Assembly (NCBI GenBank): GCA_002790835.1
Contig: PFVX01000059.1
Location: 723 to 64,722, forward strand
Direction: 5' to 3'
Source: a bacterium CG_4_9_14_3_um_filter_65_15
Lineage (GTDB): Bacteria > Krumholzibacteriota > Krumholzibacteriia > LZORAL124-64-63
DNA length: 64,000 nucleotides
Both the position numbers and the translations under genes were made by a program. The first letter of the stretch is position 1. Every line of letters starts with the position of its first letter. Below, one piece after another: positions 2,727 through 61,697 of this stretch. Below the pieces are notes generated by a model. It saw only the letters and a list, made by a program, of their open reading frames with translations. It did no database searches and was not told the origin of the DNA.

Positions 2727-2727
2727 C

Positions 2728-5129: not shown

Positions 5130-5146
5130 GAGGCTCCTCCGCTCCC

Positions 5147-9345: not shown

Positions 9346-9440
9346 GCACGGCCGCTTTCGGTTCGGGTCCGTACAGGCCGAGGATACAGGCCCGCATAGG
9401 GGAAGTCTATAGCGTTTTCTCCAAGGAGGCCATGGCGGGA

Positions 9441-15066: not shown

Positions 15067-15881
15067 CCGCCGATGATCACCATGAGTCGGTGGGTGACAC
15101 CCAGAACCGGATGGACGCGATGCGAAGTCAGGACCAGAACCGGCCCGCGAGCGGCGCAGATGCCGGGACCCATGGCGCCGGAAACGGCGTCCAGGCTCAA
15201 GGTGAATGCCAACCCCCTCCCGTTGCCCAGCGCCAGTTCGACCCCCGTTCGCGGCCCTCCGCCGCGGCCTCGGTCCACCGCAACCGCCAGGCTCCGCGCG
15301 CCGGAGGTCAACACCACCGCCGCCAAGGGTCGGGGGCCCGGGTCAGAATCTCCACCCGACCCGCTTCCTCGGGGAGACCAGAACACTTCCCCATGCAGGG
15401 TTGAGTCGTTGCTCCAGTGGAAACTCTGGAAACCGTGCCACCCCCACCACATGCTCTGCGGCAGAGTTTGACCGTCAACTGAACCGCCTCGCCTCTCCAC
15501 CAGCCAACCGAACCCGAAGCGACCTTCCCAGGCAATCTCCGCGCCCCAGGACGACTCCTGGACCGGCCAGTTGCCCACGGTTTCCCGGTTCACTCTGACC
15601 CACCCCCTCCCGGATCCCAGCCTCCGGGAGGCGCCGGCAGCCAAAAATCGAACCGGCAGATCGGGCAGGCCGTACAGCAGGGATCCCCCAGCCGCCAACC
15701 AAGTCCCTTGCTTCCGGATCGCGGGTTCTGCGCCATCGGGTGTAATGAGCGGGGCAAGTTGGACCGGGGAATGCAGCCACCCGGCGGTCAGATGACCGGC
15801 CCGGGTCGCCGCCGGATGCAGCCAAACCAACAGCAGCAGGATCGGCCAACGTTGGGTAGAGGTTCTGCCGAGGCGGGTCAT
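15045..15881 (-). CDS. Putative small outer-membrane beta-barrel protein
   Basis: ATG 15881 overlaps the upstream stop (ATGA); signal-like N-terminus; amphipathic strands; HPVLGVTHRL near the C-terminus. Confidence 0.55.
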   Translation of the reverse strand: MTRLGRTSTQRWPILLLLVWLHPAATRAGHLTAGWLHSPVQLAPLITPDGAEPAIRKQGTWLAAGGSLLYGLPDLPVRFLAAGASRRLGSGRGWVRVNRETVGNWPVQESSWGAEIAWEGRFGFGWLVERRGGSVDGQTLPQSMWWGWHGFQSFHWSNDSTLHGEVFWSPRGSGSGGDSDPGPRPLAAVVLTSGARSLAVAVDRGRGGGPRTGVELALGNGRGLAFTLSLDAVSGAMGPGICAARGPVLVLTSHRVHPVLGVTHRLMVIIGGWQNCRL

Positions 15882-25141: not shown

Positions 25142-25216
25142 GCACACTGCCTTTCGCAAGAAAATCCGGCGGCCCGCGGACACCCCGCAAACGGGGTGTC
25201 CCGGCAGCCGAGTCGC

Positions 25217-27670
25217 TTACTGGTTAAGGTCGATCCCGAAATAACTCAACACCCACCGAATGGTCTTCTTGGTCCCCGCTTCGTCGAACCGGTAGGGATC
25301 AAAGCCCCAGTAGACATCGGCACGCGCGACACCCGGTTTTTCCGCAGCCATCTTGTAGGAAAAATACCCGAACGTCCGCCCGTTGGTCCAGGCACTGGAC
25401 CTTGGGTGTCCATTGTAATCGGTCAAGGCCTGGGTGCCGCACTCGGTAACCAATTCGTCGGTGCTGTACGTGCTGGTCGGCCATTCCGCATCGCCCTGCC
25501 GCCACCGGAGTTCCCGGAGCCAGTCGAAACGGGCGATTCCCTTGAACATGGGCTCGATGCATCGGCCGTTCGGAGCTTCCGAGGAGTCGCAATTCTGCAG
25601 GATGATGCCCGTGCGCTCGCTGATGCTCTCGTTGACGAACTCGTCCTTCGTGAACTTGAAGTTCAAGGTGCCGAGCTTGAGCGTGTCCGCATCCACCGCA
25701 GAGTAATCGTGCCAGTCGATATCCGGATTGGTCCACATGGTGTCAGGAATCACCCCCGGGCCGATGCCGTGGTTGAGCTTGAAGGCCGGATCGAGCGCCA
25801 GTCCCTTCAGGCCGACACACGCCGACTTCCGGTCCTGTCCCGCCGAAACCGGTCTGCCGTAGATGTACTTGCTGGCCGGAGCGGTCCAGTCCAGGGCCGT
25901 GATCCCGGCGGTGGCATAGGGATACATGAGCGGCCCCCGATACACCTCGGTCCCGTCAGGAAGCGTGCGGGTACCGAAACCGATGGTGTAATCCGTGCCT
26001 CCGACGAGCAGGGTGGTCTCCTTGGAATCGAAGATGACGGGCACGGAATAGCGGGCGAATGACGGCAGGAAGGATTCCATGCTGGCCTGCCCCACCAGGA
26101 AGAAATTCCCTCCCCGAAACTGATACGGCGTCAACCAGACAAACCTGTCCTGGTTGTTCACGGGTCGGAACTTCTTGAACATCAACTGGGAATCGTTGTA
26201 CTCGGCATAGCAGAGAACAGCGCTGTATTCGACGATATCGGAATACTCGACCTGGTCACTGTCCTCCCTCCAATCCTTGGACCAATCGATATCGGCGACA
26301 CCACCCTGGATGTCGTCGAGGAACCGCCAATAGGCATTGCGGAACACTTCCTTGTTTCGGGAAACATTCTGCCGGTCCCGCCAGTTGTCGACATACTCAT
26401 CGATCACCTGGTCCACGATCAGCAATGGCCGCTGGAAAGCCGGATCCACGTAGGGAATGACCTGGATATTCCGGGTGACCAGCAGAACATAGTCCGAATC
26501 GTCCACAACCCGCAGATAGAAGGTATGGGTACCCTCGGTGAAGACCCGCTCGGTATCGAACAGGTTTTGCCGCGAAGTACCAGCCGGAACAGCCCATTGT
26601 TGATCGGCGGGATCGTCGGGGTTGGTCAGATCCCAGCCGTGCCGGTAGGAAACGATTTCCCCGCCGTAGGAACTGGCATCGGCCGACCATACGAAATTGA
26701 TGGGCTGTCCCGAGGCCACTTCGGCGTCCTGGTAGCCCGTGTTGAGGAAGGGCTCGTCCAGCACCAGTGCGGGCTTGAAGACACCCTGAACGGTCACATG
26801 GGCGACTTCCTGTTGCCAGCCCAGCCCCACACTGACGGCCCCGGCTGTGTCCTGGACCTGCACGGCGAAGAAGTAGTAGGCTCGGTTTTCCTGATTCCGG
26901 AACTTGACCTTGCGCTTATCGATATCGGCGCTGTAGGGCCGCCAATCCGACCAGTCGGGGTCGTCGAAGGATATGAGTCCCGGGGTATGTTCGTAAGCGT
27001 ACCTGGTCGTGACGAATTCACCCGCAGAGTCCAGGGCCTTTTTCCAGAGGTAGCGGACCTTGGTGGGGGTCTTGAGGTCGAAATCCGGGTCTTCTCCCAC
27101 CCAGCCGATATTGACCGTGGACGGAACCTTCTTGGGGTCCCTGGAACTCGTAAGATTCTTGTAAGCGACCTGGCAGGTCGGCACCAACGTCGTGGAAGTG
27201 AAGGAGATGTAGGCGGGTGAAGGGTCCTTCGCCCCATCTTCATCCACGGCGCGGATAAACAGGGAATGGGAGCGGAAACTGCGCGGGTCGGCCTCGGGAT
27301 CACCCGGGAAACCGGGTTGGTCCGCCAGCAGGATGAAAACCGAATCGGTTGCGGTCGTGAAGCGCCAGGGGTGCAGAATCGCCCCGGTCAGAGGGTCCAC
27401 GGTCAGAGTGTCGCGGGGGGAGATTCCGTCCAGCCCGTTGTCACTGACCTTCCACTCATACCCCTTGAGCTTCCCGTCCGGGTCCGAGCCGGTCCAGAAG
27501 AACTCAACCGCGAAACCGGCCTCGAGCAGGGTGGGCGGCTGGGCGACCATGCGCGTGTCGGGCCTGGCATTGGGAATTTTCACACCGCCGAGCTTGGTGT
27601 CAGCCGAACAGGCCACGAGCCCGGCCATCAGCACTCCCCAGCAAACCACCTGCAGAATGCGCCTCATCAT
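25217..27670 (-). CDS. Large lipoprotein B (Ig/FN3-like repeats plus GAT-like C-terminal domain)
   Basis: Lipobox LVA-C; NARPDT...FWTGSDPDG...AVDEDGAKDPSPA module; RBS GAGGAG before ATG 27670. Confidence 0.75.
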   Translation of the reverse strand: MMRRILQVVCWGVLMAGLVACSADTKLGGVKIPNARPDTRMVAQPPTLLEAGFAVEFFWTGSDPDGKLKGYEWKVSDNGLDGISPRDTLTVDPLTGAILHPWRFTTATDSVFILLADQPGFPGDPEADPRSFRSHSLFIRAVDEDGAKDPSPAYISFTSTTLVPTCQVAYKNLTSSRDPKKVPSTVNIGWVGEDPDFDLKTPTKVRYLWKKALDSAGEFVTTRYAYEHTPGLISFDDPDWSDWRPYSADIDKRKVKFRNQENRAYYFFAVQVQDTAGAVSVGLGWQQEVAHVTVQGVFKPALVLDEPFLNTGYQDAEVASGQPINFVWSADASSYGGEIVSYRHGWDLTNPDDPADQQWAVPAGTSRQNLFDTERVFTEGTHTFYLRVVDDSDYVLLVTRNIQVIPYVDPAFQRPLLIVDQVIDEYVDNWRDRQNVSRNKEVFRNAYWRFLDDIQGGVADIDWSKDWREDSDQVEYSDIVEYSAVLCYAEYNDSQLMFKKFRPVNNQDRFVWLTPYQFRGGNFFLVGQASMESFLPSFARYSVPVIFDSKETTLLVGGTDYTIGFGTRTLPDGTEVYRGPLMYPYATAGITALDWTAPASKYIYGRPVSAGQDRKSACVGLKGLALDPAFKLNHGIGPGVIPDTMWTNPDIDWHDYSAVDADTLKLGTLNFKFTKDEFVNESISERTGIILQNCDSSEAPNGRCIEPMFKGIARFDWLRELRWRQGDAEWPTSTYSTDELVTECGTQALTDYNGHPRSSAWTNGRTFGYFSYKMAAEKPGVARADVYWGFDPYRFDEAGTKKTIRWVLSYFGIDLNQ

Positions 27671-27709
27671 GACGTTTCTCCTCGATCCATTGGTCGCCAA
27701 ACTCTATGG

Positions 27710-30046
27710 TTACGGTCCGGAACACTCAAAATCAACGCCGCCGGCCTTGACAATGATCCGGAATCTCTTTTCCACGGGTGTATCATCCAAGCTCGCCATG
27801 GCGCTCCGGGAGAGATCCAGGGCCTTGAAAATCACTCCCGTGGTGAAGCGTGTCTGCAAGTCGCCGTCCCGCCAGGTCACCTCATCAGGCAATTCGGAAA
27901 CCGCAGGTCGAACCTGTGAGAAGATGTTGTACCGCGAAGGCCTGGTCGGCTTAAAACCAAACTTCGTCTGGTCCAAAGCCACAGCCTGGATGGTCCCGCC
28001 GCCGGTCTGGCGAACCGACTTTTTGAACAGGTCGTCGGCGAGTTCCTGGTCGTTGCCGACCATGGACAGGAGAATGAAACGGTAAACTTCTTCCCCGCTT
28101 GTAATGAGGAACTCCGGCACGCCGATATCGACCGATACCTTCCAGATCCCCGTGGCCGCATCGATCTTGAGCCCAGGATCGGTGATGGTGAGAGTCCCAT
28201 AGGTGGGATCGTTCAGGCCGTCGTTGCCGCCGCCGTCCTTGATCTGATTGTACGGATCGCAATCGTAGTCGACCTGGTACCGCCAGCCCATGATCCGGTT
28301 CAGGGGAGTGGTCGTCCAGCTTTCCCTGGGGTCGTCGATTCCGTGCAGGAGCACTTCCATGCGGTAGAGGCGCGCGGAAATCGCCCATTGGTTGTCCGAC
28401 TGATCGGTCGTATCGGTCAGGACCTGGGTGAACCCGGTGTTCTTGTCGATCAGGATCACGGCCTTGTTCAGATATTCCAGTTCGTCGAAACCTGTACCGT
28501 TCGCCGTCACCCGGAACACCTGCTCCCCGTCGAAACATTTGTTGCTCGAGTGGCCGTCGTAGCACTCGATGTTCTCGTCGTACTGGGACGTCGAGAAGCG
28601 CTTCGGCAGCAGTTCGATGCACTGGATGCAGGGCGGGAAGCCGACGGTGAATTTGAGCTGGGCCGGGGTCCCGTCGGCACGTCCGTGTTCGTCGATGGAC
28701 TGCATGTTCACGGTCATGGTGTCCCGAGGGCCCACCAGGAATCCCAGGGTATCGGCGTACCAGCCACCCTCGCCTTCGGCCGGCCATGCGGGTTCGTAAT
28801 TGATGGTGCTGTTCTGGGTCTTGAAACTGAAGGACCCGCCGGAGAAGAGATCGATCACCCCTTCCAGGTATCCGGTCATCCCCAGAGCGTACTCGGGGTT
28901 GACCTTGACATCCCTTTGATCATCCCGCCCCAGGGCCTTGACCACGACGTACGTGCGGTCCGGGATCCGATCCCCATTCTGGAAGGGATGATGCACCTGC
29001 GCCGTATCGTTGAGCTGGATGTAGTAGGGGTATTCCTCGGGATCACCGGGGTGCTCGAGATCGAAACCTTCCACGATGCGGGTCTCGGGGTCGTAATTGA
29101 CCACGAATTTGTAGGGCCGCATGGAGGTGGCGACCTCCACCCCCGCCACATCGATGGAGTTGACCTCCAGTTCCACCTCACCGCTGGGCAACAGCTTCAC
29201 GAACGGGTTCAGGTCGGTGGTGTTGCCGCTATTGGCAAAGAACAGACTGGTCCGGCTGCCGAAATAGGAGATGCTGTCACCGGTGGCCTCCACGGCCTTG
29301 CGGGGATGCCAACAGTCCGTCTCGGAGTCGATACAATTCCCGCCCAGCTCCCCCAGGATGCGCCACTTGTAGCCGAACAGGCCATCGTCCACCGGCGGCA
29401 CCGTATCGAGGGCCGCCAGGGCAGCGGGATCAAAACCCTGGACGTTCGGTGAAGTCCCTGCCCACCCCAGACGGTAGGAGACGCCGTACCCCACGGTATC
29501 GGCCGCACCGAATGCCATTTCGGTGGTGTCGTTCTCACCGATCCGGAAAAACCGCAAGGTCGGATTCCCCAAAGTGTTGGTGAAAAAATGCAGTCTGGCC
29601 GGGGTCCGGTCGAAATCGCCGTAATCGTCGATGGCCACCATGTGCAGGGTCAGGTCGTAGGCTGTGCTGACACCCTGGTCGATGGTGAAGTTGAAGACCG
29701 AGTCCGTCCGGGTGGTGTAGTGCCCGATCTCCAGAGTCGTTGCATCCAGCGCAGGATTGAAGTTGATATCTTCCTCGTCGTCGCTGGTCCGGTCGTCCTG
29801 AACGGTGGTGTCGGTCACGGCCCAGACGAACCGCTCGACCCTGCCGTCCTCGTCCGACCCATACCAGTAGACATGGAAGTGGAAGTAGCCTCCCCCGTCT
29901 TCGGCAGGAGCGCCGATGATGTAGGTCTCGGGAGCCTTGTTCACGACGACCGCTTCCGGCTGAAATGCGCGACACCCGGTAAGCACCAGGGACAGAAGCA
30001 CCAATATGGCCGGGATTTTCCAACCGGTATTTCGATTGAGCATCAT
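27710..30046 (-). CDS. Large lipoprotein A (Ig/FN3-like repeats)
   Basis: Lipobox LTG-C; NKAPET...YWYGSDEDG...AIDDYGDFDRTPA module, repeated later as DPETR...SIDEHGRADGTPA. Confidence 0.75.
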   Translation of the reverse strand: MMLNRNTGWKIPAILVLLSLVLTGCRAFQPEAVVVNKAPETYIIGAPAEDGGGYFHFHVYWYGSDEDGRVERFVWAVTDTTVQDDRTSDDEEDINFNPALDATTLEIGHYTTRTDSVFNFTIDQGVSTAYDLTLHMVAIDDYGDFDRTPARLHFFTNTLGNPTLRFFRIGENDTTEMAFGAADTVGYGVSYRLGWAGTSPNVQGFDPAALAALDTVPPVDDGLFGYKWRILGELGGNCIDSETDCWHPRKAVEATGDSISYFGSRTSLFFANSGNTTDLNPFVKLLPSGEVELEVNSIDVAGVEVATSMRPYKFVVNYDPETRIVEGFDLEHPGDPEEYPYYIQLNDTAQVHHPFQNGDRIPDRTYVVVKALGRDDQRDVKVNPEYALGMTGYLEGVIDLFSGGSFSFKTQNSTINYEPAWPAEGEGGWYADTLGFLVGPRDTMTVNMQSIDEHGRADGTPAQLKFTVGFPPCIQCIELLPKRFSTSQYDENIECYDGHSSNKCFDGEQVFRVTANGTGFDELEYLNKAVILIDKNTGFTQVLTDTTDQSDNQWAISARLYRMEVLLHGIDDPRESWTTTPLNRIMGWRYQVDYDCDPYNQIKDGGGNDGLNDPTYGTLTITDPGLKIDAATGIWKVSVDIGVPEFLITSGEEVYRFILLSMVGNDQELADDLFKKSVRQTGGGTIQAVALDQTKFGFKPTRPSRYNIFSQVRPAVSELPDEVTWRDGDLQTRFTTGVIFKALDLSRSAMASLDDTPVEKRFRIIVKAGGVDFECSGP

Positions 30047-30180
30047 ACTGGCATGCACCCTCCGGGAAGCATTTGCGTGACAGCAGGTTCTGTACAGTCG
30101 CCGAGGTGGGTCCGGCAACAGGAAGGGCGATCGCCAGTCAAGGCAGTAGCCCGTGGGGATGGTCCATTAACAGCCCCTGA

Positions 30181-30210
30181 AATATAGGGATTCGAAGTAT
30201 TCGCTGTCAA
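30181..30210 (-). promoter_or_regulatory. Sigma70-type promoter (TTGACA-N18-TATATT) for the lipoprotein operon
   Basis: Near-consensus hexamers downstream of the 30266 terminator and upstream of ATG 30046. Confidence 0.75.
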
Positions 30211-30265
30211 CCAGAAGGTTCCATTCCCGGGGGCAAACACACCTGTCGATAGGCATAATCCCCAC

Positions 30266-30296
30266 AAAAAGGAGCGGCTCCCGAAGGAGCCGCTCC
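30266..30296 (-). terminator. Rho-independent terminator after the 1018-aa CTD protein
   Basis: Perfect 11-bp stem GGAGCGGCTCC/GGAGCCGCTCC with a 4-nt loop, followed by U5 on the minus strand. Confidence 0.9.
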
Positions 30297-30330
30297 CAAA
30301 GGCCACACAAGGTGGAGGAATCCGAGGGGA

Positions 30331-33300
30331 TTACTTCACCATGGTGATCTTGTTGACCTGGACCTCATCACCGTAGCGAGCTTCGTAGAAGTACACGCCG
30401 GAAGCAACAGAGGAACCAGAGTTGCTGGTGCCGTTCCAGTCCACGGACTGGGTACCGGCATCCATCACGTCGTCGACCAGGGTCCGGACGAGTTCACCGC
30501 GAATGTTGAAGATCTTCACCGTCACATGACCACGCTTGGGCATGTTGTAGGAGACCGTAACCTTCGGGTTGAACGGGTTCGGGAAAGCCTTGGTCGCGAA
30601 CTGCGCTCCAGGAATCACGCCCGAGGGGGTACCACCGGAAGTCTGGCCAAACCAGTCCAGAACATCCGACAGAACCTGCGCGCGCGCGGTCAACGGAGCA
30701 GCGGCCTGGGCGCCGCAAGTCGGGTCGTCGTAGATGAACATGAAGTCATACGGCGTACTGACGAGCTTGCTGCCGTTGGCCCGAACGTTGGCAGTGGCAG
30801 CACTGTAGGTGTACTGACCAGCAACGCAACCGGGAGCCAGGAATTCGGCCAACTGCGTGGCGCCGGCACGCGGAGTCACGGCGTCGAACGTGTTGATTCC
30901 AAAGCAACCACCGTAGGCAACCCAGGAAGACTGATTCACGATGACACCGTTGCCTGCCAGAGCGGAGACGACGGGAGTGGCCTGGTTGTCGATCAACGGA
31001 AGCAGATTGGTGCTCACGAGATCCAGACCCATGTAGTCGTTCAAGAACGTCAGGGTGTTGGTCCCACTACCGTCGAGATCGTTGGCCAGCTCATCACCGG
31101 TCAGGAACATACCCTTGATCGGGTCGCCAGGAGCGGGCAGATCCAACCACGATGACACGAGGTCAACGTCGTTGCCATAGTCGCTGCTGGAGGCGAAATC
31201 GCCGTTGCTGATGGTGAACTTGGACAGATCGCCGGAGGTGTACAGCATGGTGTTGTAGTTGGCGATCTGACTGATGGAGGCACGACCACCGAGACCATTA
31301 CCCACACCGGAGCTCGGGCCCGTGGTGTAGTAAATGTCGTAGTCGCTGCCGGGAACGTAGCCCAGCTGATCCAAAGCGCTGTACCATTCCTGCTCTCCGC
31401 CACGGCGGGCGAAGTCGTTCCAGAACAACACCTCAGGCTGGGTGTAGTTGCCAGGAGTACCCGTGATCGACGGCAGGCCGTGCACGATGAAGTCCTGGTT
31501 GTAGGCCAGAGGATGGCTGAAATCACCGTAACCGGAGATGTCGCCGGGGATGTGGACGGACTTGATGTCGCCGGCCACATCGTCACTGGCTTCGATGTAG
31601 TAGTGAAGCACGTCACCGGGGTACAAGAAGCCGGTGTCGGGCAGGTCGAAGGCCCACACGTTCGGAGCAACGATGCCATTCACGTTACGAGCGGAGTCGC
31701 CAGCGGAAACGCCGGTCGTCGCGGTACCGAAGATGCTCGTGCGGTAAGCGTTGAACGCGGGGTTCGGCTGCATGGTCCAGTGCAGGATCGGAGGACCGTT
31801 CAGAACGGCACCGGTACGAACCAGCTTGACCGTGCAGGTGATCGAGTCGGCCGGATCGTTGGCCAGATCGGACGGCACGTTGGTGTTGTTGGCCGCATCG
31901 AACCGCACACTCAGGATCGAAGGATCCGTCATGTCGATAAGACCGACCTCAGGGAAGTTGTCCTGAGCCATGTCGATAACACGGTAGGTCACACCAGGAC
32001 CGGCGAAGGGGAAGACCTTCAGGTTCACGTTGTCGAAGTAGGGAGCAGGATAGCCGTCGAGGCCGGCGAAGTACTGCACACAACCCATACGGATCTGCAC
32101 CCTCTCACGAGCGGGCTGCACCCAGGACGTGGCGTCGTTAATAGGGCGGATGTAGTCGGGGCCACCGTAGTACACATAGCCCGTGCTGTTCCAACCCTGG
32201 GTCTCGATGTCCTCTCCCACGAGTGCGGAGCGCACGCCGAAGAAGTAGAAGATACCCGGGCTGTCAGGAGAGAAGTCCTCGTGACGGTAGACGTCGAAGC
32301 CGAACCAGAGACCGTCGTAGGTGGCGTTGGGCCACGTCATCTCGGGAGACTTGACGTAGTTGTTGATGGCCCCACCGGGGGACATGCCACCGGTCGGAGT
32401 CACAATCGCACCACCGGGGCCGTAGCACCAGTTGACGCACTGGCTGCCGCCGGTGCCGGGAACGACCACGCCGTCATCGATGAAGGCGACCTGGTTCGTA
32501 CCGTTGGTGTTACAGGGATCGATGTCGGACAGACCGCACCAGATCTGGGCGAAGTCGCCGACGGCGATCGGAGCCACCGTCGTCCAGTTACCCATACCGG
32601 TTTCGAAGTCGTCGAAGGTGCTGTAATTGTTGGCACCGTTGACCACGGAGACGGTCACGTCGTCCAGAGTCGCGGCGCCGAAACCACCATAGCAGTAACC
32701 TTCGGCCGAGTAGGCACCGTCAGAGAAGAAACGGAAATCGATGACGATTTCGTTGCCGTTGATGTAATCCCCGGGCAGGTAGGTGATAATCCCGGAGAAA
32801 GCCTCGGCCACGCCACCGGCACTGTCGCCGTTGAAGGTAAGGGCGTTCTGGTAGCCCAGAAGACCCGTGACCTGGTAGCTCAGGTAGACGTAGTCGTAGT
32901 CCTGCTCCACCTGATAAAGGATGTTACCGCTGACGGTGACCGTGGAGCTGGAAGAATTATCGAGGACGGAATAACGCCACTCGACGAGGTCGTTCCAGTC
33001 ATCCCCGTAACCGGCGAAGTTGGCTCCGCAGGCGGGGAAGTAGTCGCCGCACCACAGGCCGTTGCCGGTGATACCCAGGGTATCGAAGCCGGCGGGCGCG
33101 AACACATGCCAGTGGGAAGACGCGGCGTTACCGGACGTCAAATCGACCGAGCTCCAGCCGGCGGGCAGACGGTCAACGCCACAAACGGCATTTTCGAAGT
33201 CTCCCTGATAGAGGCCGCCTGGCCCCATCAGCTGAATGGTATCGCCGGCGGCCTTAGCGCCATAAGCGTTACTGCCGGATTGCCAGGCGTTGACATCGCT

Positions 33301-33387
33301 AGTGAAGCTGGGGATATCCCCGGCCACACTGCTCATCGCCATACCCAGCACCAGGGCGACACAAGCAAACATGGTGAATTTCTTCAT
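30331..33387 (-). CDS. 1018-aa secreted Cys-containing protein with FlgD-Ig/T9SS type A-like CTD (candidate major surface protein)
   Basis: Signal peptide MKKFTMFACVALVLGMAMSSVA; CTD KAFPNPFNP...IFNIRGELVRTL...WNG...VASGVYFY...KITMVK; GAT-like domain before the CTD. Confidence 0.85.
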   Translation of the reverse strand: MKKFTMFACVALVLGMAMSSVAGDIPSFTSDVNAWQSGSNAYGAKAAGDTIQLMGPGGLYQGDFENAVCGVDRLPAGWSSVDLTSGNAASSHWHVFAPAGFDTLGITGNGLWCGDYFPACGANFAGYGDDWNDLVEWRYSVLDNSSSSTVTVSGNILYQVEQDYDYVYLSYQVTGLLGYQNALTFNGDSAGGVAEAFSGIITYLPGDYINGNEIVIDFRFFSDGAYSAEGYCYGGFGAATLDDVTVSVVNGANNYSTFDDFETGMGNWTTVAPIAVGDFAQIWCGLSDIDPCNTNGTNQVAFIDDGVVVPGTGGSQCVNWCYGPGGAIVTPTGGMSPGGAINNYVKSPEMTWPNATYDGLWFGFDVYRHEDFSPDSPGIFYFFGVRSALVGEDIETQGWNSTGYVYYGGPDYIRPINDATSWVQPARERVQIRMGCVQYFAGLDGYPAPYFDNVNLKVFPFAGPGVTYRVIDMAQDNFPEVGLIDMTDPSILSVRFDAANNTNVPSDLANDPADSITCTVKLVRTGAVLNGPPILHWTMQPNPAFNAYRTSIFGTATTGVSAGDSARNVNGIVAPNVWAFDLPDTGFLYPGDVLHYYIEASDDVAGDIKSVHIPGDISGYGDFSHPLAYNQDFIVHGLPSITGTPGNYTQPEVLFWNDFARRGGEQEWYSALDQLGYVPGSDYDIYYTTGPSSGVGNGLGGRASISQIANYNTMLYTSGDLSKFTISNGDFASSSDYGNDVDLVSSWLDLPAPGDPIKGMFLTGDELANDLDGSGTNTLTFLNDYMGLDLVSTNLLPLIDNQATPVVSALAGNGVIVNQSSWVAYGGCFGINTFDAVTPRAGATQLAEFLAPGCVAGQYTYSAATANVRANGSKLVSTPYDFMFIYDDPTCGAQAAAPLTARAQVLSDVLDWFGQTSGGTPSGVIPGAQFATKAFPNPFNPKVTVSYNMPKRGHVTVKIFNIRGELVRTLVDDVMDAGTQSVDWNGTSNSGSSVASGVYFYEARYGDEVQVNKITMVK

Positions 33388-33729
33388 TTTTTTCCCCCCA
33401 TCATCGGCACGAAGCCGATACATGGTTAGGCGAACGATTGAATGCACACGCCAGATTCAGGCGAATTAGCGGTACATTGACGGGCGACAAATAAGTTCCC
33501 AGAGACTGCACACGCAGAGCGAACTGCGCTTCACGAGCGAGACATCCTCCTCTGATGCAGACCCATTGGTGACGAGCGAACAAGCGTCAAGTGATTTCAG
33601 CGAACTGCAAGTGGAAAACAGGGACAGCGCACCTCAAGGGATGGGAACGGATTGTCTTTGAGTCGCACCATTACCTTACCCGAACCACGCTGGGGAGTCA
33701 ATAGTCTTTCGGAAAAAAATATCATGCCT

Positions 33730-54388: not shown

Positions 54389-54417
54389 AGCGTCCTCCTT
54401 CGGACAGGGGTTTGGAG

Positions 54418-54445
54418 TTGCCCGCTACCGGATCTGGCTTACAAT
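54418..54445 (+). promoter_or_regulatory. Sigma70-type promoter (TTGCCC-N16-TACAAT) for lpxH
   Basis: Hexamers in the divergent gap; the -10 ends 8 nt before the ATG. Confidence 0.5.
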
Positions 54446-54453
54446 GGGTTCCC

Positions 54454-55245
54454 ATGAGCGCCAAACGACAACCCACGGCCGTCATCCTGGCCGACGCCCA
54501 TTTCCACCTTCGACCTGATGCCGCCGAGAGCCGGCGCATCGAGCGATTCCTGGAGCTGCTCGAGGCCATCCACGGCGTGGACCATCTGATCCTGCTCGGT
54601 GATATCTTCGACTTCTGGTTCGACTATCCGCATTTCCGTCTCGACGGCTACGATGAGATCCTCCAGGGCCTGGACGGGGTCCGAGCCTCCGGAACCACTG
54701 TCCATTTTGTCGGGGGCAACCACGACATCTGGGCGGCCGGTTACCTCCATCGGCGCTTCGGCAGTGAGCCCGACGGCATGCCGTTGGATCTCCAACTGGG
54801 GGATCTGCGGGTCCGTTTCGATCACGGTGACGGCCTGCTCAGCCACGATTGGCTCTATCAAACCTTCCGGACCATTGTCCGCACGCGGGCCGGAATCCTC
54901 CTGGCCAAGTCCCTGCACCCCGAGATCCTGTTCGCCCTCAGCACCTGGCTCAGCGGCCACAGCCGCAACGCCTCGCGGGACGAGGGTCGGGAAATCGAAG
55001 CCAAGGCCTCCGCCTGGCTCGGCCGCCAGCAGGACGCCCCCTGGGACCTCATCGTCATCGGGCACGTCCACCACCGTTTCACGACCACCGTCCAGGGGCG
55101 GACCATGGCCGCCCCCACGGGCTGGTTCAACCGCCTGGACCTGGGCGTAATCCAGGACGGAAAATTCGCCCTGCTCGATTTCGACCAGGACACCCTGCCG
55201 GATTTCGGATCCCGCGAAACGACCCTACCAGGTCATTCCCAATGA
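54454..55245 (+). CDS. lpxH: UDP-2,3-diacylglucosamine hydrolase-like metallophosphoesterase
   Basis: ADAHF, LGDIFDFW, GGNHD, HGDG, GHVH motifs; the only plus-strand gene; overlaps the porV 3' end by 21 bp. Confidence 0.8.
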   Translation: MSAKRQPTAVILADAHFHLRPDAAESRRIERFLELLEAIHGVDHLILLGDIFDFWFDYPHFRLDGYDEILQGLDGVRASGTTVHFVGGNHDIWAAGYLHRRFGSEPDGMPLDLQLGDLRVRFDHGDGLLSHDWLYQTFRTIVRTRAGILLAKSLHPEILFALSTWLSGHSRNASRDEGREIEAKASAWLGRQQDAPWDLIVIGHVHHRFTTTVQGRTMAAPTGWFNRLDLGVIQDGKFALLDFDQDTLPDFGSRETTLPGHSQ

Positions 55246-56163
55246 GATCTTGTTCCCGTCCTCGAAGCCCTCGGTGGTCATGTCCTCGTACGCATAATCC
55301 AACCGCAGGTTCCTCAAACGGAAGCCCACTCCCGCGGTGATCCCCTGGGATTCGTAGTTGATGCGCGACCCCAACCGCAGGGCCAGCTCGGGAATGAGGT
55401 GCAGCTCGGTACCGACATGCGCCTTTGCCGTGGTGTCATTGGGCATGAAGAGTTCGCCCGCCAAAGTGAGTTTCCCCTGAAAAACCCGGGCCACCGGAAC
55501 GTAGGCGGCGCCAATCCGCACGGCCGTCGGCAAATCGAAAGGCTCATCCCGCAGGTTCATCTGGCCGCCGATATTGGTGGCCGAAGCGGCGAAGACCAGC
55601 CCCTCGATCAAGGCCTGGTGCGTGAGGAAGAAATCGAAGGCGAAGCCGCTGTCGTTGTAGAAGTCGATCTTCTCGTAAATCATCTTCGCACCGATGCCGA
55701 ACGCAAAGCGATCTCCCAAGGGGTGGGCATAGGATACTCCCAGGGCCACATCGTAAGGCTTGAAGGTCCCCTCGAAAACATCGACACCCGATTCCAGGGT
55801 CTTGCGATCGATCTCGTCCGAGTAGAATCCCATGAATGTCACGCCCAGAACGCCCTCACCGACCCGATGAGCCACCCCCGCGGCTTCCTGGCTGAACAGC
55901 CCGAGGTATCGGTCGTGCTGCAGGACCAGCTCCGTTTCGAAATCGGCAAATACGTTGTTGGCGGGATTCCAGAAGAGAGCCGTCCCGCCGCTGCTGGAGG
56001 CAACTCCCGTCTCCCCCATGCCGGCCTCTCGCGCGCCGACACCCATCCTCAGGGAAAGCAACCCCGCATCACCAGGGTTGCCGGCCAAGGCAGGCAACGC
56101 AATTGTGATCAGGGTCAAAACCAGGAACAACCCGAGGGTGGCCGACAACCGATTGCGATTCAT
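55225..56163 (-). CDS. PorV/PorQ family outer-membrane beta-barrel
   Basis: Signal peptide; LSLRMGVGAREAGMGE...ALFWNPA signature; barrel strands; C-terminal Trp (ISLGMTW). Confidence 0.85.
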   Translation of the reverse strand: MNRNRLSATLGLFLVLTLITIALPALAGNPGDAGLLSLRMGVGAREAGMGETGVASSSGGTALFWNPANNVFADFETELVLQHDRYLGLFSQEAAGVAHRVGEGVLGVTFMGFYSDEIDRKTLESGVDVFEGTFKPYDVALGVSYAHPLGDRFAFGIGAKMIYEKIDFYNDSGFAFDFFLTHQALIEGLVFAASATNIGGQMNLRDEPFDLPTAVRIGAAYVPVARVFQGKLTLAGELFMPNDTTAKAHVGTELHLIPELALRLGSRINYESQGITAGVGFRLRNLRLDYAYEDMTTEGFEDGNKISLGMTW

Positions 56164-56201
56164 GGGATCCCTTTCCGCGCGCGCCTCACTGGGCGCCGTT
56201 T

Positions 56202-59200
56202 CTATCTCACGACTGTGAATGATACGACACTGTGGGTGGTTTCGCCTCCGGCATCGACGACCAGCCTGCTGATATACATGCCGGTCGCCACACCGTCGAG
56301 CGGGACGATCAGGGTGAAGGGATCGCCACTCACCACGTCATTCCAGGCGGTGGTGGTGACCAACTCACCTTCAAGGTTGTAGATGAACGCCCGAGCCCGG
56401 CCCGGCGAACGGGCTTCCCCGCGGACATACAGGGGTCCCTCGCCCAGGGGGTTGGGGTAAAACGTATGGCTGCCGAGAACCATACCGGAACCGATCGAGC
56501 CGGGGCTCTGAACGATCCAGGCTTCGGCGTCGTAATCCCCGTTGCGCCAGATACCGCCGCCGGACATGGGCCAGGCGGCCGTTTCCGCAGCGACATCCCG
56601 CCACATCATGACCGTGCTGGAGTAATCTCCGTCCAGGCTCACCCCGTCCGCGCCGGGTTCGGTAATACGCAGGAAGGAACCCGCCGCCACAAGGTCCAGC
56701 TCCCCATCCCCAACCAGGTCTCCCAAGGCAGGCGTAACCGCTCCGGTTCCGGGTCCGGACACGGGCCAACCTTGGATTTCCTCACCCCGTTCCTTCAGCG
56801 CGATAAGGCTACCGTCCTCCAGCGGGAAGATGGTCTGGGGCCGGGAGGAATCCACTCCCCTCAACCAGGCGACCAGGGGGCCTCCACCGCCCACACCGGT
56901 GCCCATATCGCGCGGGCGGCGTGGCCAGCCATCGGACCAGTCGCCTCCGTGCCCGATTCCACCCAGCAAATCCGGTCCCACAAAGTACCCGCCGGGCGCC
57001 ATGGCCGATTGGACCGTTACCGCGGGGCCCCACTCATGGATCGACCCCACCTTCACCATGGCGGCATTGAAGAACAGGGTTGCACCGGAACCGTCCCGCC
57101 CAGCCACCTGGACGAAACGCAATTCCTCCTCGCCCTCCTTCTGCGCCAGGCCCCAGGTTAGCGGCCATGGGCCCGGAATTACCGGCAAGGCAATACTCCC
57201 CCGCAGGGGTGCATCATTCGGGGCGTCCCGGTCGTAGGCCACCAGTTCAAGAGAGGATTCGCCGGTCAAGCTGTCGTGGAGCGCGCAGAGAAACCACTGC
57301 CCGAAAGCCAGGGTCGGTGGGGCGCCGACCGCGCCCGGTCCCAGTCCGACGGCAGGGAAAAACCCCGGCTGGCCCGAGGCGAACCCATCAAGCCAGGCAT
57401 GCCCGTTGTCCTCGTAGATCACGAAGGCCGCCACCGAAACGTCTTCCCGTGCCGGACCGAGTGGGTCACCGAGAGACGCCAGGATCGGAGGCACCCGACA
57501 AGTGGGCAAATCGGCCCAGAGCCCAAATCCGTCGCCTCCAGATACCAACGGCTGGCCGGTACCGTCGAAAGCATACAGCCCGTGGGGACCGGTCAGCACG
57601 ATCTCCGGCTTCGCATCGCCATCCAGATCACCCAGAGCAACAGGGAGATTCCAGTTCACCGCGGAGCCGTCTCGAGTCGAAACCAGCAGGGGTTCCACCG
57701 TCGCGGAGTCTCCATCGGCATCAAAATATTCCCGCAGGTTCCCGTCAAGGGCATAGACCTCCCCGGCATGACCGGCCAGGATGATCTCCGCCGGTGTTCC
57801 GCCTCCGTCCAGATCCCCGACCAGGACGTGACTGCCGCGCAGATCCACACCGGGCAAGGTCCGCTGCCGCGAGAACATGGGGCCTTGAGCGGCTTCCCCG
57901 ACCGACCCCACCGAGAACCTAATGGTGTCGGCGAAAGCGATTCCCCACAGGGTGTCGCCTTCTACGACCCCGAGGAAAACACCCTGTGAATCAGCAACCA
58001 CGTTGCTGAAATCCCTCAAGACGATTCCCGTGTAGGCGCCGGCTGCCGATTCGGTCCCCGGTCTGGTATAGGGGCCGAATTCGTGGTTGTCTTCACCCCG
58101 GAACGAGTCGTCGTCACCACCGTAGGTGTAGTCCGAAGGGATGGGCGAATCCAGGTCCTGGATGCCGTCGGCCTCCTCCAGGTCCACCGCCTTGTGCAGA
58201 GGGTCGGAGTTGAAGAGATTATCCTCCGCGTCGTACACAGCCCGGATCAATCCCTCGTCGACGTGCCAGATGTAGACACCACTCCCCGCTGCCGTCACAC
58301 CGCCGGGCCGGCCGGTGTTGGCGCTCATGGCAAAATCCCACTCGGCCCCCGCCAACGACTCGAGGGTGTCGGCCTGTGGGTCGTAAACCCCCGTCGGCCA
58401 ACCATTCCCGTAATCGGAGTTCGCATCGTAAAAGTCCGGGATTCCATCGTGGTTGAGGTCGCCCGGAAACGAAAACATCCCATTCCCGTCAGGGTCCTGG
58501 AGGCGATACTCCAGCAGCCAGTATTCCTGCCCGTTGATGTCCACCCGGGCAGACGCGGTCTCGGCAGAGGGGTTTTCCGCCGGGGTCAGGGCATAGGTGC
58601 CCGCAGCATGGGGATCCACCACCTGGGGATCCAACCAGCCGACCAGGTACTTGTTGAAAGCACAGGGTTCAGGGGGAATGAGGCCTGCTCCGGAGTAGAG
58701 TCCATACCCCATCAGCCCGAAAATCCCGATTCCCTGACTGTCGACATTCCCGGCCGGAGTAAAATCGGTCAACGAGAGCATGCCCAGCCGCAAACCCACC
58801 TCGAAACAATAGACGCCCAGGCTGCCCAAACGACCGAAGGGCTCCTGGTACTCGGTCTCAGGAAGAATCAACACCCGGTCGATCCCTGCGGCGCCCCCGA
58901 AGTCGTCCCCCGCCAACCATGGACTCTCCAGGATCGTATCCTGCACGGCGGAGGCGAAATCCCTCGGCCCCAGATACGTGCTGAAAATCTGTTCGGGATT
59001 AAGGCCATAGAAATCGGTCTCCCCACCGGCCCCGGCGTGGATCAGGATCAGGGTGTCGAAACCGCTGAAATCAACGACCGGGTCCAACGCCGCCACCACG
59101 TCCCGCGCCAGGGCAATCGACTGTTCGCCATATTGGGGGTGGTTTCCGTAGAATCCCATCGGGTGCTCCAGATTCACGACACCCGGAGCAATGGTGAAAT

Positions 59201-59642
59201 TCAGGGTAAAGCGATGTCCGCTGACGGAGCGGAAATACTCGGCGACATTGGTCAGCAGGTAATCGAAGTAGACCGAATCGTGGGCCGCGAAAGTGTTGGG
59301 GATTTCGAACTGGACGGGCTGAGGGAAATCTCCCGGGACAACTCCATAACGGCCCAGCAGCAGGCTGTCGCTGAAGTCGCAGAGCATGACCAGGGCGTTC
59401 AGCGCGGCCGGCGCCTTTTCTCCGGCCAGGCGACGCATCTGCAGGTCGCGGTCCCCTTCCGCCCTCAAGGGACGCGTGGCGACTTCGAGGTCGGCGGCGT
59501 GGCTGCGGATGCGGGTCAACAAAGCCTGGGGAATCGGCTCACCGGTCGAGGGATCCCCCACCGCGGAGGCTGCTTCCTGAATTCCGATCAGGGCCAGCAA
59601 TATCATGACCGGAATCAAACGGGTATTTCTGGGGTGGGGCAT
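56202..59642 (-). CDS. M6 (immune inhibitor A) family-like protein with degenerate zinc site, FG-GAP repeats and T9SS-like CTD
   Basis: ALVMLCDFSD, YFRSVSGHRF, ILIHAGAGGE, Met-turn GLMGYG, AFNKYLVGW; HExxH position reads FEVGL; GDLDG repeats; CTD FYPNP...IYNLEGELV...VATGMYI...FTVVR. Confidence 0.85.
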   Translation of the reverse strand: MPHPRNTRLIPVMILLALIGIQEAASAVGDPSTGEPIPQALLTRIRSHAADLEVATRPLRAEGDRDLQMRRLAGEKAPAALNALVMLCDFSDSLLLGRYGVVPGDFPQPVQFEIPNTFAAHDSVYFDYLLTNVAEYFRSVSGHRFTLNFTIAPGVVNLEHPMGFYGNHPQYGEQSIALARDVVAALDPVVDFSGFDTLILIHAGAGGETDFYGLNPEQIFSTYLGPRDFASAVQDTILESPWLAGDDFGGAAGIDRVLILPETEYQEPFGRLGSLGVYCFEVGLRLGMLSLTDFTPAGNVDSQGIGIFGLMGYGLYSGAGLIPPEPCAFNKYLVGWLDPQVVDPHAAGTYALTPAENPSAETASARVDINGQEYWLLEYRLQDPDGNGMFSFPGDLNHDGIPDFYDANSDYGNGWPTGVYDPQADTLESLAGAEWDFAMSANTGRPGGVTAAGSGVYIWHVDEGLIRAVYDAEDNLFNSDPLHKAVDLEEADGIQDLDSPIPSDYTYGGDDDSFRGEDNHEFGPYTRPGTESAAGAYTGIVLRDFSNVVADSQGVFLGVVEGDTLWGIAFADTIRFSVGSVGEAAQGPMFSRQRTLPGVDLRGSHVLVGDLDGGGTPAEIILAGHAGEVYALDGNLREYFDADGDSATVEPLLVSTRDGSAVNWNLPVALGDLDGDAKPEIVLTGPHGLYAFDGTGQPLVSGGDGFGLWADLPTCRVPPILASLGDPLGPAREDVSVAAFVIYEDNGHAWLDGFASGQPGFFPAVGLGPGAVGAPPTLAFGQWFLCALHDSLTGESSLELVAYDRDAPNDAPLRGSIALPVIPGPWPLTWGLAQKEGEEELRFVQVAGRDGSGATLFFNAAMVKVGSIHEWGPAVTVQSAMAPGGYFVGPDLLGGIGHGGDWSDGWPRRPRDMGTGVGGGGPLVAWLRGVDSSRPQTIFPLEDGSLIALKERGEEIQGWPVSGPGTGAVTPALGDLVGDGELDLVAAGSFLRITEPGADGVSLDGDYSSTVMMWRDVAAETAAWPMSGGGIWRNGDYDAEAWIVQSPGSIGSGMVLGSHTFYPNPLGEGPLYVRGEARSPGRARAFIYNLEGELVTTTAWNDVVSGDPFTLIVPLDGVATGMYISRLVVDAGGETTHSVVSFTVVR

Positions 59643-59703
59643 GGAGACCTGTTCCTTTGCCTCAATTCATGGGGACTGGATTCCCGTTCTCAAACGAGGC
59701 GCA

Positions 59704-59733
59704 AGTATAAGTACCGCTGCAGGACCGGGTCAA
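59704..59733 (-). promoter_or_regulatory. Sigma70-type promoter (TTGACC-N18-TATACT) for the M6-like/porV pair
   Basis: Near-consensus hexamers about 60 bp upstream of ATG 59642. Confidence 0.7.
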
Positions 59734-59960
59734 CGATTCCCGGCCCTGCATGATGGAAAAGGAGAGCCCGACGAAGTACCTGTCACCCCTGATCGACATT
59801 CCCTCGCCGGGCTCTCACATGTGCTGGTGTCCCCGTCCTCGCAACCGCCATCTGATCCCCAGTGGTGCCAACCTTTCCGAGAATCCGATCTCGCCTGCCC
59901 GACGGGTGATGGGGGGAAAACCACCAACACACACTCAATGATCTCTGGCCGTACCGGACG

Positions 59961-61697
59961 TCAGCGTTTGCGTCCGGAAGAACTCTTGCTGCGCGAACTC
60001 GAATCGCTGGAGCTGCTCCCCGACGATTTGGAGCGCGACGGTTGGCTGCGCTCGGTCGCCCGGCTATCGTTGCTCCGGCTGCGCACCTCGGTCCCGCCAC
60101 TGCTGCGGCTTCCGTTTTCCTGCTTTCGCGGGGCCACGCGGGGAGCCGGCTTGGTCTCGGTCTTGGACCGCTGCGTATTGGGCGCCGCTCGTCCGGTGCT
60201 TTCCCGGGTCCGGCTGGGACTGGTCGTTCCGGAGTTCCAGATCCGGGTACCCCTGCGCCGGGGTTCCACGGGCCGGATGGTGCGGGACTCGGTCCCGGCA
60301 GGCTGGCGGGGGGTCCGCACCGTCGCCCCACTCCCCGGGGTCCGCGCTCCAGCGGGTCGATCAGGAGTCCGAACCCGTGTGCCACGCCCGACGGGTTCCA
60401 AAGCGGGCTTTTCCGTTCCGCTCCCCGAAACATGGCGATAAGATTCCCGCGTGCGTCCTGTCGTGCCGGGTGAAACCATCGTTCCGGGCTGGCGAATGCG
60501 CAGACCTGGCCTGGTCTCGCCCCCCACCGGTTCGGTCACCACGGGTCCGGTGCGGGCAATCAACTGCTCGCCCCCGTAGGAACCGCGAACATCCTTGCTT
60601 CCACGGGTGCCGCCGGCGCCCGGAGCCCGGGTCAAATCGTCGTTCCGGGCCAAGGGTGTGCGGCGGGTCATGGCCGTGCGTTGCCTGGCATCGGGCCCGT
60701 CACCCTGGATCAGCGGGGAAACCCGGCCATATTCCCGGCTCTTGCGCGCGATGCGGTTGCCGTCACCGGGGGTAAGCGGTCGATAGCGGCGCCCTCCCCC
60801 GTTGTAATAGGTGTAGATGTCGCCCCGATAGTAGGGGGAGTCGCACCAGACCCAGCTCCCGGAGTACCAGTTGTAGCCCAGGCTCGGCCCGCAGGAATAA
60901 CTGGGCCAGTACCAGAAGTTCACCCAGGGCCTCCGGTTCCAGGGATCGATGTAGGCATACACGGGCTGAGAGTAGATGGGGTAGTAGCCATAGTCGTCGT
61001 ACCAGCGGTTGTACCATCCGTAATCGTACTCGATGTCCAGGGTGCAGTTGTCCGCGTAGGGTTCGTACCCCTGGTCGGAATCAATGTGGCACTGGGAGCA
61101 CAGGTACCGCGGGTGGTCGACTTTGCGATGCACGTAATAACTGGCGTAGTTCGACACGACCAGGTTCTCGGTATCCTCCAGACCGGTTACGGCATAGTTG
61201 ATCTCATTCATGGCCAGGAAGGGATCTCCTGCCACCTCGTAGCGGAAGGGGTCCCGACGATTCTCGCCGTGGAAGTCGATTTCCAATTCCCGCAAATCAA
61301 AGGGGTAAGCCGAGGCAAGGACCTCCACGAAACCCTCACCTTCCAGGCTGCCCGTCTCCAGGGGCGCCGATCCGGGCACCGGCACCTCGTACTCGTGGCC
61401 GGCAAACACGAAACCATCGTCCAAGCGGCTGCGCGGCCACAGCAGATCCACCTGGCCCTCGGTATCGATGCGATAGACCACGGCATAGGCGTCCCGATTG
61501 AGCTGGAAACCCACGCTCATGCGCTCGTCGCGCTGGTATACCTCGTCGCTGTCCTTGTCCAGCCAGATGCCGGCACGCAGTTCAACTTTGGAGTAGTCGA
61601 AATCGCCGGAGGCATCCTCTGCGACCGTCGGCGTGGCACCGGAGGCGGTACCCCAGACCAACATGGCCAGCAGGCAGATCGTGATCTCGCGTTTCAT
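59961..61697 (-). CDS. DUF4384-domain secreted protein with CxxCH motif, Tyr/Trp-rich region and disordered tail
   Basis: Signal peptide; WLDK...Y...E......NRDAYAVVYRIDTEG.V.LLWP DUF4384 pattern; YLCSQCH; Arg/Ser/Pro-rich C-terminus. Confidence 0.8.
   Translation of the reverse strand: MKREITICLLAMLVWGTASGATPTVAEDASGDFDYSKVELRAGIWLDKDSDEVYQRDERMSVGFQLNRDAYAVVYRIDTEGQVDLLWPRSRLDDGFVFAGHEYEVPVPGSAPLETGSLEGEGFVEVLASAYPFDLRELEIDFHGENRRDPFRYEVAGDPFLAMNEINYAVTGLEDTENLVVSNYASYYVHRKVDHPRYLCSQCHIDSDQGYEPYADNCTLDIEYDYGWYNRWYDDYGYYPIYSQPVYAYIDPWNRRPWVNFWYWPSYSCGPSLGYNWYSGSWVWCDSPYYRGDIYTYYNGGGRRYRPLTPGDGNRIARKSREYGRVSPLIQGDGPDARQRTAMTRRTPLARNDDLTRAPGAGGTRGSKDVRGSYGGEQLIARTGPVVTEPVGGETRPGLRIRQPGTMVSPGTTGRTRESYRHVSGSGTEKPALEPVGRGTRVRTPDRPAGARTPGSGATVRTPRQPAGTESRTIRPVEPRRRGTRIWNSGTTSPSRTRESTGRAAPNTQRSKTETKPAPRVAPRKQENGSRSSGGTEVRSRSNDSRATERSQPSRSKSSGSSSSDSSSRSKSSSGRKR

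Follow-up and report, generated by a model that had tools for sequence, protein, structure and literature searches.

A conserved gene pair for an inactivated M6-like metalloprotease and a PorV-family barrel in a Krumholzibacteriota genome

Organization of the locus

The window analysed here is a stretch of 64,000 nt on contig PFVX01000059.1 from bacterium CG_4_9_14_3_um_filter_65_15, a member of the Krumholzibacteriota; the names borne by the closest homologues point to the same phylum, and the organism derives from groundwater or aquifer metagenomes. Two adjacent genes on its minus strand are the subject of this report (Table 1). [quoted passage not shown]

A preliminary description of this DNA had placed the large gene 38 bp upstream of the PorV/PorQ-family gene and under a promoter of its own. 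The open reading frame (ORF) coordinates give exactly this distance. The spacer contains a purine-rich stretch resembling a ribosome-binding site (GGAAAGGG), and its coding strand has no intrinsic (T-run) terminator. In 11 orthologous loci, the promoter motif listed in Table 1 recurs exactly once, with the same placement ahead of the M6-like gene. One metatranscriptome fragment of 140 nt bridges the spacer (56163–56302), which is weak evidence because carry-over of DNA is possible. Together, the short terminator-free spacer, the promoter conserved in position and the bridging fragment support a two-gene unit with its own promoter, and M6i and the barrel are likely to belong to one transcription unit.

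Table 1. Positions of the features of the M6i–barrel locus in the window.
Feature	Position	Strand	Basis
LpxH-like calcineurin-type phosphoesterase gene, convergent	54412..55245	+	Metallophos domain
PorV/PorQ-family outer-membrane β-barrel gene, 312 aa, with signal peptide and conserved N-terminal segment	55225..56163	-	
M6i–barrel spacer, 38 bp, from M6i stop codon to barrel start codon	56164..56201	-	sequence read
M6i gene (1146-aa M6-like inactivated metalloprotease)	56202..59642	-	ORF, NCBIfam matches, homologues, AlphaFold2 model
C-terminal β-sandwich, T9SS type-A-like sorting domain, aa ∼1055–1146	56205..56480	-	AlphaFold2 strands, pLDDT 83–95
β-propeller region, aa ∼570–1020, FG-GAP/VCBS-type repeat	56583..57935	-	FG-GAP_3 match; AlphaFold2 all-beta, pLDDT mostly 80–93
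M6-like (immune inhibitor A type) domain, aa ∼78–560	57963..59411	-	NCBIfam match boundaries
Degenerate active-site helix CFEVGLRLGMLSLTD, in place of HExxHxxGxxD	58764..58808	-	alignment of 19 family members
Sec signal peptide, aa 1–27 (...AASA/V), cleavage site inferred	59562..59642	-	sequence; N-terminal helix, residues 4–27, in AlphaFold2 model
Sigma-70-like promoter TTGACC-18-TATACT, 62 nt upstream of M6i start codon	59704..59733	-	motif shared by 11 orthologous loci
Conserved terminator-like hairpin with invariant loop, between DUF4384 gene and promoter	59762..59816 (with trailing CUUUUCC, 59755–59816)	-	
Secreted DUF4384 protein gene, 578 aa, long basic disordered tail	59961..61697	-	Pfam DUF4384
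Predicted lipoprotein gene, ∼340–372 aa	61724..62842	-	synteny with DUF4384 gene

The large M6-like protein

From the N to the C terminus, M6i is made up of a signal peptide, pro-like helices, an M6-like domain, a β-propeller and a C-terminal domain (CTD). It matches NCBIfam model NF052323 ('T9SS-dependent M6-like inactivated metalloprotease') with 165.1 bits over aa 121–548 (cutoff 600), the alignment covering model positions 84–535 of 1043, that is, the M6 part only. Against the M6 domain model TIGR03296 it scores 65.7 bits over aa 119–380 (cutoff 110.8), and is thus homologous yet divergent. The features of the NF052323 type are there, namely an inactivated M6-like site plus a type-A-like sorting domain, the latter recognized by profile comparison. 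At least 368 full-length homologues were found at 43–62% identity, and a search with the M6-like domain returned 1873 relatives (cluster representatives, E<1e-3), mostly 1000–1150 aa long, several of which have a scoring type A CTD. A sequence search of the PDB with M6i gave no match. The Pfam and NCBIfam models revealed no Peptidase_C25 or PorU match in M6i beyond similarity at the level of the CTD, and the possibility that it is a diverged PorU was rejected, there being no C25 domain.

The AlphaFold2 model of M6i, built with 19 homologues as input (mean predicted local distance difference test score, pLDDT, 74.6), combines an N-terminal half of alpha/beta type with a propeller region confidently modelled as all-beta and a terminal β-sandwich. 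A CTD model is matched at E<0.1 in only 5 of 19 orthologues. When a profile of the last 95 residues of the M6i family was compared by hhalign with the CTDs of relatives that pass TIGR04183, the probability was 97% (E = 7.7e-11); against a bona fide CTD encoded elsewhere in the window, the same profile gave E = 3.7e-4. The earlier designation of the large protein as a CTD protein is supported indirectly, at the family level, by hhalign and by the modelled β-sandwich, while the CTD of M6i taken alone stays below threshold.

The PorV-family barrel

The barrel passes the PorV/PorQ family model NF033709 with 148.6 bits (aa 35–311, cutoff 90), and in a phmmer search PorV of Flavobacterium johnsoniae (6h3i_F) was its only significant relative among solved structures. 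Its AlphaFold2 model (pLDDT 68) has PorV chains as its top Foldseek matches, 8gl6_F (E = 1.5e-13, TM 0.69) and 6h3i_F, and further resembles the FadL/TbuX/TodX and OmpG folds. By this model the barrel is predicted to be PorV-like in fold, a FadL-like outer-membrane β-barrel. An assignment to the family that NCBI names PorV2 (NF052325) was rejected, at 60 bits against a cutoff of 325. In a midpoint-rooted neighbour-joining tree, the barrels fall into three groups, which match the gene arrangements and the lineage labels.

The likeness to FadL, TbuX, TodX and OmpG, together with scores below the PorV and PorQ equivalog cutoffs (given below), would also suit a pair unrelated to the T9SS, in which a FadL-like uptake channel cooperates with a propeller protein at the surface, the latter capturing a substrate that is hydrophobic or polymeric. 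This is highly improbable: the best matches in both sequence and structure are to PorV, the PorV/PorQ family model is passed, the partner protein has a T9SS-type CTD, homologous pairs lie inside porU-porV operons (see below), and other CTD proteins are encoded in the same window.

Conservation of the gene pair

A scan of one genome per GTDB species gave more than 466 relatives of M6i, of which the best 80 loci were examined. Their PorV-family neighbours were detected with a hidden Markov model (HMM) built from orthologues of the barrel. In 71 of the 80 loci, the M6-like gene has a PorV-family ORF as its immediate neighbour on the same strand. At the remaining nine, the relevant flank ends at a contig edge, and hence there is no assessable counter-example. 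The barrel gene lies downstream in 49 of the 71 and upstream in the other 22, and the pair has thus been kept through an inverted gene order. The genomes are labelled Krumholzibacteriota, Latescibacteria, Eisenbacteria, Cloacimonadota, Gemmatimonadota, Aegiribacteria/Fermentibacteraceae (Fermentibacterota), Calditrichota, Ignavibacteriota and 'Bacteroidota', which places the pair in at least eight phylum-level lineages. A further ∼38 pairs of M6i and barrel clusters in the protein database come from contigs of identical length. The M6-like and PorV-family genes are a genuine, strongly conserved pair, and the survey of M6-porV adjacency that the preliminary description had proposed, with lack of conservation as its refuting outcome, comes out in favour of the adjacency (71 of 71 assessable loci).

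Some taxonomic labels are probably wrong. Five metagenome-assembled genomes titled 'Fibrobacteraceae' (L009–L011, L015, L043) carry a Krumholzibacteriia-type cluster with 41–56% identity to the window protein, and one titled 'Armatimonadota' (L036) contains a Cloacimonadota-type pair.

Loss of the active site

Where M6 peptidases have HExxHxxGxxD, M6i reads FEVGLRLGMLS: the first His has become Phe, the Glu is kept, the second His has become Leu and the Asp has become Ser. None of the 19 family members keeps either His or the Asp, as seen in a column-by-column alignment with the intact HEFGHQLGLPDLYD of relatives. Thus the part of the preliminary description that spoke of a protease fold holds as far as M6 homology goes but does not extend to catalysis. 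Metalloprotease chemistry is excluded in M6i because all three zinc ligands are replaced across the Krumholzibacteriia-type family. The segment ...GVYCFEVGL(R/H)LGMLSL... is near-invariant in these 19 proteins, which are only 44–62% identical overall, and few segments of the family are as well conserved as the former active-site helix. Judging from the alignment, this helix is under strong constraint despite the lost catalysis.

Other lineages show different states of the same motif. It is intact, as HE(F/L)GHxxGLPDLYD, in Aegiribacteria, several Eisenbacteria and Gemmatimonadales, and one Cloacimonadales. Most Cloacimonadota have HQFGHQIG, in which the catalytic Glu is lost and the metal ligands are kept; the second His is lost in L022/L023 (HEIGQKLG), both His are lost in Latescibacteria (FE(F/L)(A/G)xRIG) as in the clade of the window (FEVGLRLG), and the whole motif is lost in Ignavibacteriota (ASLGNHLG). 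Catalysis has thus been lost by several independent routes across the lineages, with the linkage to PorV retained throughout. Such repeated loss with the linkage kept argues that the conserved function would be binding or scaffolding, and that the ancestor would have been an active M6 enzyme already paired with PorV.

The HQxxH form of Cloacimonadota occurs in L029, L030, L032, L037, L040–L042, L045, L047, L048, L051, L053, L054, L056, L059, L066 and L068. Its change of Glu to Gln with zinc ligands kept, seen in most homologues of that phylum, is the classic type of substitution used for substrate trapping.

Relation to porU

The gene row porU-porV-M6(-like) is present in 12 loci, from Ignavibacteriota/Bacteroidota-labelled and Aegiribacteria/Fermentibacteraceae genomes. 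A bona fide PorU is encoded directly upstream of the barrel in L067, L073, L075 (gene split), L078 and L079. The three of these PorU proteins that were scanned (L067, L078, L079) score 935–963 bits against NF033707 (cutoff 420), the barrels scanned (L067, L079) score ∼252 bits against the canonical PorV model NF033710 (cutoff 250), and M6i of the same two loci scores 798–827 bits against NF052323 (cutoff 600). M6i also passes NF052323 (664 bits) in L076, a locus whose barrel ORF is truncated at the contig start. Seven Aegiribacteria/Fermentibacteraceae/Sabulitectum loci encode, ahead of PorV and the M6 protein, a PorU-like C25 protein of full length (304 bits in L062), and relatives of the L062 protein are annotated 'C25 family cysteine peptidase'. 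The occurrence of this row in at least two phylum-level lineages means that there the M6(-like) protein accompanies the sortase and is no substitute for it.

This bears directly on the proposal of the preliminary description that an M6-derived protein has taken the place of PorU as the PorV-bound scaffold or cargo-processing subunit, giving a non-canonical T9SS without a C25 sortase. The position of the gene speaks for it, since the loci of Krumholzibacteriota, Latescibacteria, Eisenbacteria and Cloacimonadota have the M6-like gene immediately upstream of the barrel gene, where porU canonically lies, and no porU was found in the 64-kb window or in the fetched flanks (6 kb per side in L004–L083, 10 kb in L001–L003). 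An HMM of PorU from six loci, run against the window ORFs of at least 100 aa, matched none in full length and hit only the CTDs of other window proteins, and none of the 82 hits of a protein search with the L062 PorU-like query was labelled Krumholzibacteriota, although this search was word-limited and its result is weak. The named hits were mostly of Fermentibacterota type; eight more distant ones had 28–33% identity, and the four of these looked up were mostly in high-GC loci. As a general rule, however, replacement is contradicted by the 12 loci of other phyla that encode a homologue together with porU and porV, so that the ancestral role co-exists with PorU, and processing of cargo by a metalloprotease is excluded here by the replaced zinc ligands. 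Moreover, the absence of porU near the pair says little because PorU-like genes can lie far from porV, as in the tandem C25 loci described next. Replacement is on the whole quite unlikely, and in Krumholzibacteriota specifically it is still conceivable.

In the high-GC loci L084–L087, tandem PorU-like genes with C25 and CTD (∼1230–1250 aa) lie beside a pyruvate-phosphate dikinase gene (L084, 5500–13756; L085, 6243–13762; L086 and L087, 6191–13747), and L088, a short contig of lower GC (0.49), has a single C25+CTD copy (2127–5810). No PorV-family gene occurs within 10 kb per side in L084–L088, nor is there synteny with the window beyond the dikinase gene, and these loci tell nothing firm about the genome of the window.

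Function of the pair

The reading favoured here, which is about evenly balanced between being right and wrong, is that M6i serves the T9SS as an accessory or surface partner associated with PorV and without a catalytic role, normally beside PorU, and that the pair is a conserved T9SS module. M6i would be exported by Sec and then cross the outer membrane via the T9SS by means of its CTD, and would stay associated with the neighbouring PorV-family barrel, as PorU does with PorV and PorZ with PorQ. Since the metal site of its M6 domain is lost, this domain and the β-propeller would form a binding platform and no enzyme, and M6i would act as an accessory of a PorV-centred sorting or attachment step, alongside the PorU sortase. 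Binding between CTD and barrel, retention at the surface and a binding role for the dead cleft are the three steps that we infer.

Several observations weigh against this reading. The association of M6i with the barrel is seen here as genomic linkage. The barrel scores below all equivalog cutoffs (PorQ NF033711, 76.5 bits against 220; PorV NF033710, 62.3 against 250; PorV2 NF052325, 60.3 against 325) and is slightly more PorQ-like than PorV-like (76.5 vs 62.3 bits), and it could be the sole general PorV of its lineage, in which case the adjacency would not reflect a dedicated partnership. The CTD of M6i by itself scores 16.1 bits against Pfam Por_Secre_tail (PF18962; cutoff 27) and 13.6 bits against TIGR04183 (cutoff 23). 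A Foldseek search with the M6i model returned generic β-propellers only, and the top 50 matches listed include no structure of PorZ, of PorU or of an M6 protein. As for the T9SS core of this genome (SprA, PorKLMN, PorU), the reading covered the 64-kb window, and no core T9SS gene is present among the window ORFs scanned, which were all eight of at least 750 aa and the neighbours of the pair.

It is also conceivable, if rather unlikely, that M6i is T9SS cargo like any other, abundant and serving, for example, in binding at the surface, that the barrel is a housekeeping PorV shuttle, and that their linkage reflects co-regulation or historical accident. The NCBI family name treats the protein as T9SS-dependent cargo, the barrel in porU-porV-M6i loci is the canonical PorV, and the groups of the barrel tree track lineage labels, as expected of an orthologous housekeeping gene. 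T9SS cargo genes are normally scattered, however, and here the linkage holds in all 71 assessable loci across phylum-level distances, despite inversion and repeated loss of catalysis. Linkage kept so widely is hard to explain without functional coupling, and the reading as an accessory partner of PorV is preferred.

A broader reading, unlikely as it stands, is that the M6(-like) propeller protein is an ancestral, unrecognized subunit of the PorV-centred attachment or shuttle machinery in the sampled FCB (Fibrobacterota–Chlorobiota–Bacteroidota) phyla, none of them shown to be Bacteroidia. It would be the product of the third gene of a porU-porV-M6 operon, an active metalloprotease repeatedly turned into a pseudoenzyme adaptor; in Krumholzibacteriota-like lineages, where it occupies the position of PorU, it might form, with the barrel, a minimal sortase-independent system of surface retention.

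Part of this is already known. NCBIfam NF052323 (T9SSA_dep_M6i) names one branch of the family, its inactivation and its dependence on the T9SS, and models exist for PorU2 and PorV2 (NF052324, NF052325). M6i of the window is a divergent branch without a curated model and with a different gene arrangement. In the searchable library, no literature was found that links M6-type proteins (immune inhibitor A) to PorV, PorU or the T9SS, and nothing relevant on the T9SS of Krumholzibacteriota, on PorU in Cloacimonadota or on genes downstream of porV; one literature match to 'PorV2' was rejected as an artefact of a superscript reference. Neither the FCB-wide linkage of M6-like genes to PorV nor the repeated loss of catalysis appears to have been described before.

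What is understood of the T9SS comes almost entirely from Porphyromonas and Flavobacterium, and many other FCB phyla carry CTD cargo as well. A gene that accompanies porV in every assessable genome of about eight phyla, and that in two of them lies within porU-porV operons, ranks as a strong candidate for an accessory component so far missing. The existence of active-site-intact and independently inactivated versions with the same PorV partner provides a natural experiment that separates binding or scaffolding from catalysis. For annotation, M6i-type proteins should not be named active M6 proteases, and the short barrel should be treated as their cognate PorV-family partner.

Flanking genes and other proteins of the window

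Loci of the Krumholzibacteriota, Latescibacteria and Eisenbacteria types always have the lipoprotein and DUF4384 genes ahead of the pair. After the pair come the convergent LpxH-like gene, a small ORF and the genes for DegP and a sigma factor resembling RpoD. These flanking genes were not found in Cloacimonadota loci or in loci with the barrel upstream. The lipoprotein has no Pfam or NCBIfam match. In the DUF4384 protein, a segment rich in Trp and Tyr is found together with a basic tail of ∼250 aa rich in Ser, Thr, Arg and Pro, and both proteins may share the functional unit of the pair. The convergent gene had been described as lpxH. Its convergence holds, the 3' ends of this gene and the barrel gene sharing 21 bp (55225–55245) and the convergent order being kept in 27 related loci, but the protein is only LpxH-like, with scores below the LpxH cutoffs (PRK05340, 60.5 bits against 134; TIGR01854, 42.8 bits against 190).

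The hairpin between the DUF4384 gene and the promoter has a minimum free energy of -37.2 kcal/mol (z = -3.66). The 22-nt core of its loop, AATGTCGATCAGGGGTGACAGG, is single-copy in the window and does not vary among 8 orthologous loci, where protein identity is only 46–62%. An Rfam search with the hairpin gave no match. The hairpin may do more than terminate transcription, for instance as a regulatory RNA or by binding a protein.

A fourth conserved gene, of ∼1000–1080 aa and not present in the window, follows the M6-like gene in Ignavibacteriota-, Calditrichia- and related loci (L067, 8964–12203; L073, 9113–12325; L078, 8729–11809; L063, 9005–12133; also L055, L070, L071, L074, L075, L079 and L080). 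Its product has an intact HExxH, with a weak flagellinolysin-like match, and TolB-type propeller repeats, and three of the four sequences inspected end in aromatic residues like an outer-membrane barrel.

Elsewhere in the window, a region of lower GC (22808–33447, minus strand; 0.58–0.60 vs ∼0.64 elsewhere) encodes four large exported proteins. One (791 aa) is BNR/sortilin-like and bears a CTD, two are lipoproteins encoded in tandem (827 and 802 aa), and the fourth (1038 aa) has a CTD that scores as Por_Secre_tail. The 802-, 827- and 766-aa proteins were considered as T9SS parts and rejected, none having a family match and the first two being lipoproteins. A 572-aa protein (15878–17596, minus strand) with a lamin-tail domain and a FlgD-Ig/CTD-like C-terminus is probably T9SS cargo. 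The match to PurD (phosphoribosylamine-glycine ligase) at 8023–10155 (minus strand) covers only aa 271–702 of a 710-aa ORF, whose N-terminal extension of ∼270 aa represents either a fusion or an over-extended ORF start.

Comparison with known systems

The closest named family is NF052323, with which M6i shares a homologous M6-like domain without HExxH, a beta-rich middle part, a type-A-like CTD and the same size class. True members (L067, L076, L079) adjoin a PorV-family gene, as M6i does, but lie downstream of a canonical porU-porV, whereas M6i of the window is upstream of a short barrel with no porU nearby, and their active-site remnant is ASLGN in place of FEVGL. With the M6 peptidases of the immune inhibitor A/PrtV type, M6i has the domain itself in common and retains HAGAGxETD, WHxDE and EEADG, but it is without HExxHxxGxxD, while some relatives with the same architecture and a PorV neighbour keep HEFGHQLGLPDLYD.

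Genes for a T9SS protein and an outer-membrane barrel also stand side by side in the case of type B CTD proteins, where the adjacent PorP/SprF-like barrel anchors the secreted protein (PMC9143113). The window differs in having a PorV/PorQ-family barrel and a type-A-like CTD. In T9SS attachment, PorU is held by PorV and PorZ by PorQ (PMC5562754, PMC8545088, PMC12365241). PorZ resembles M6i as a non-catalytic surface protein with a β-propeller and a CTD that goes with a PorV/PorQ-family barrel, and the window barrel scores higher as PorQ than as PorV; PorZ, however, has two propellers and no M6 domain, the window barrel is below the PorQ cutoff of 220 bits, and M6i matches no PorZ family in NCBIfam. 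As for PorU, which remains at the cell surface bound to PorV (PMC5562754, PMC8545088), the likeness in Porphyromonas gingivalis and Flavobacterium johnsoniae is that a large protease-fold CTD protein has its gene directly upstream of that for a PorV-family barrel. Unlike M6i, an M6-derived pseudoenzyme without C25, PorU is a sortase of the C25 cysteine peptidase type and has an active site, and M6i homologues co-occur with PorU. The analogy drawn in the preliminary description to the CTD-protein/barrel pairs of the attachment complex is nonetheless reasonable, and a conserved pairing is what was found.

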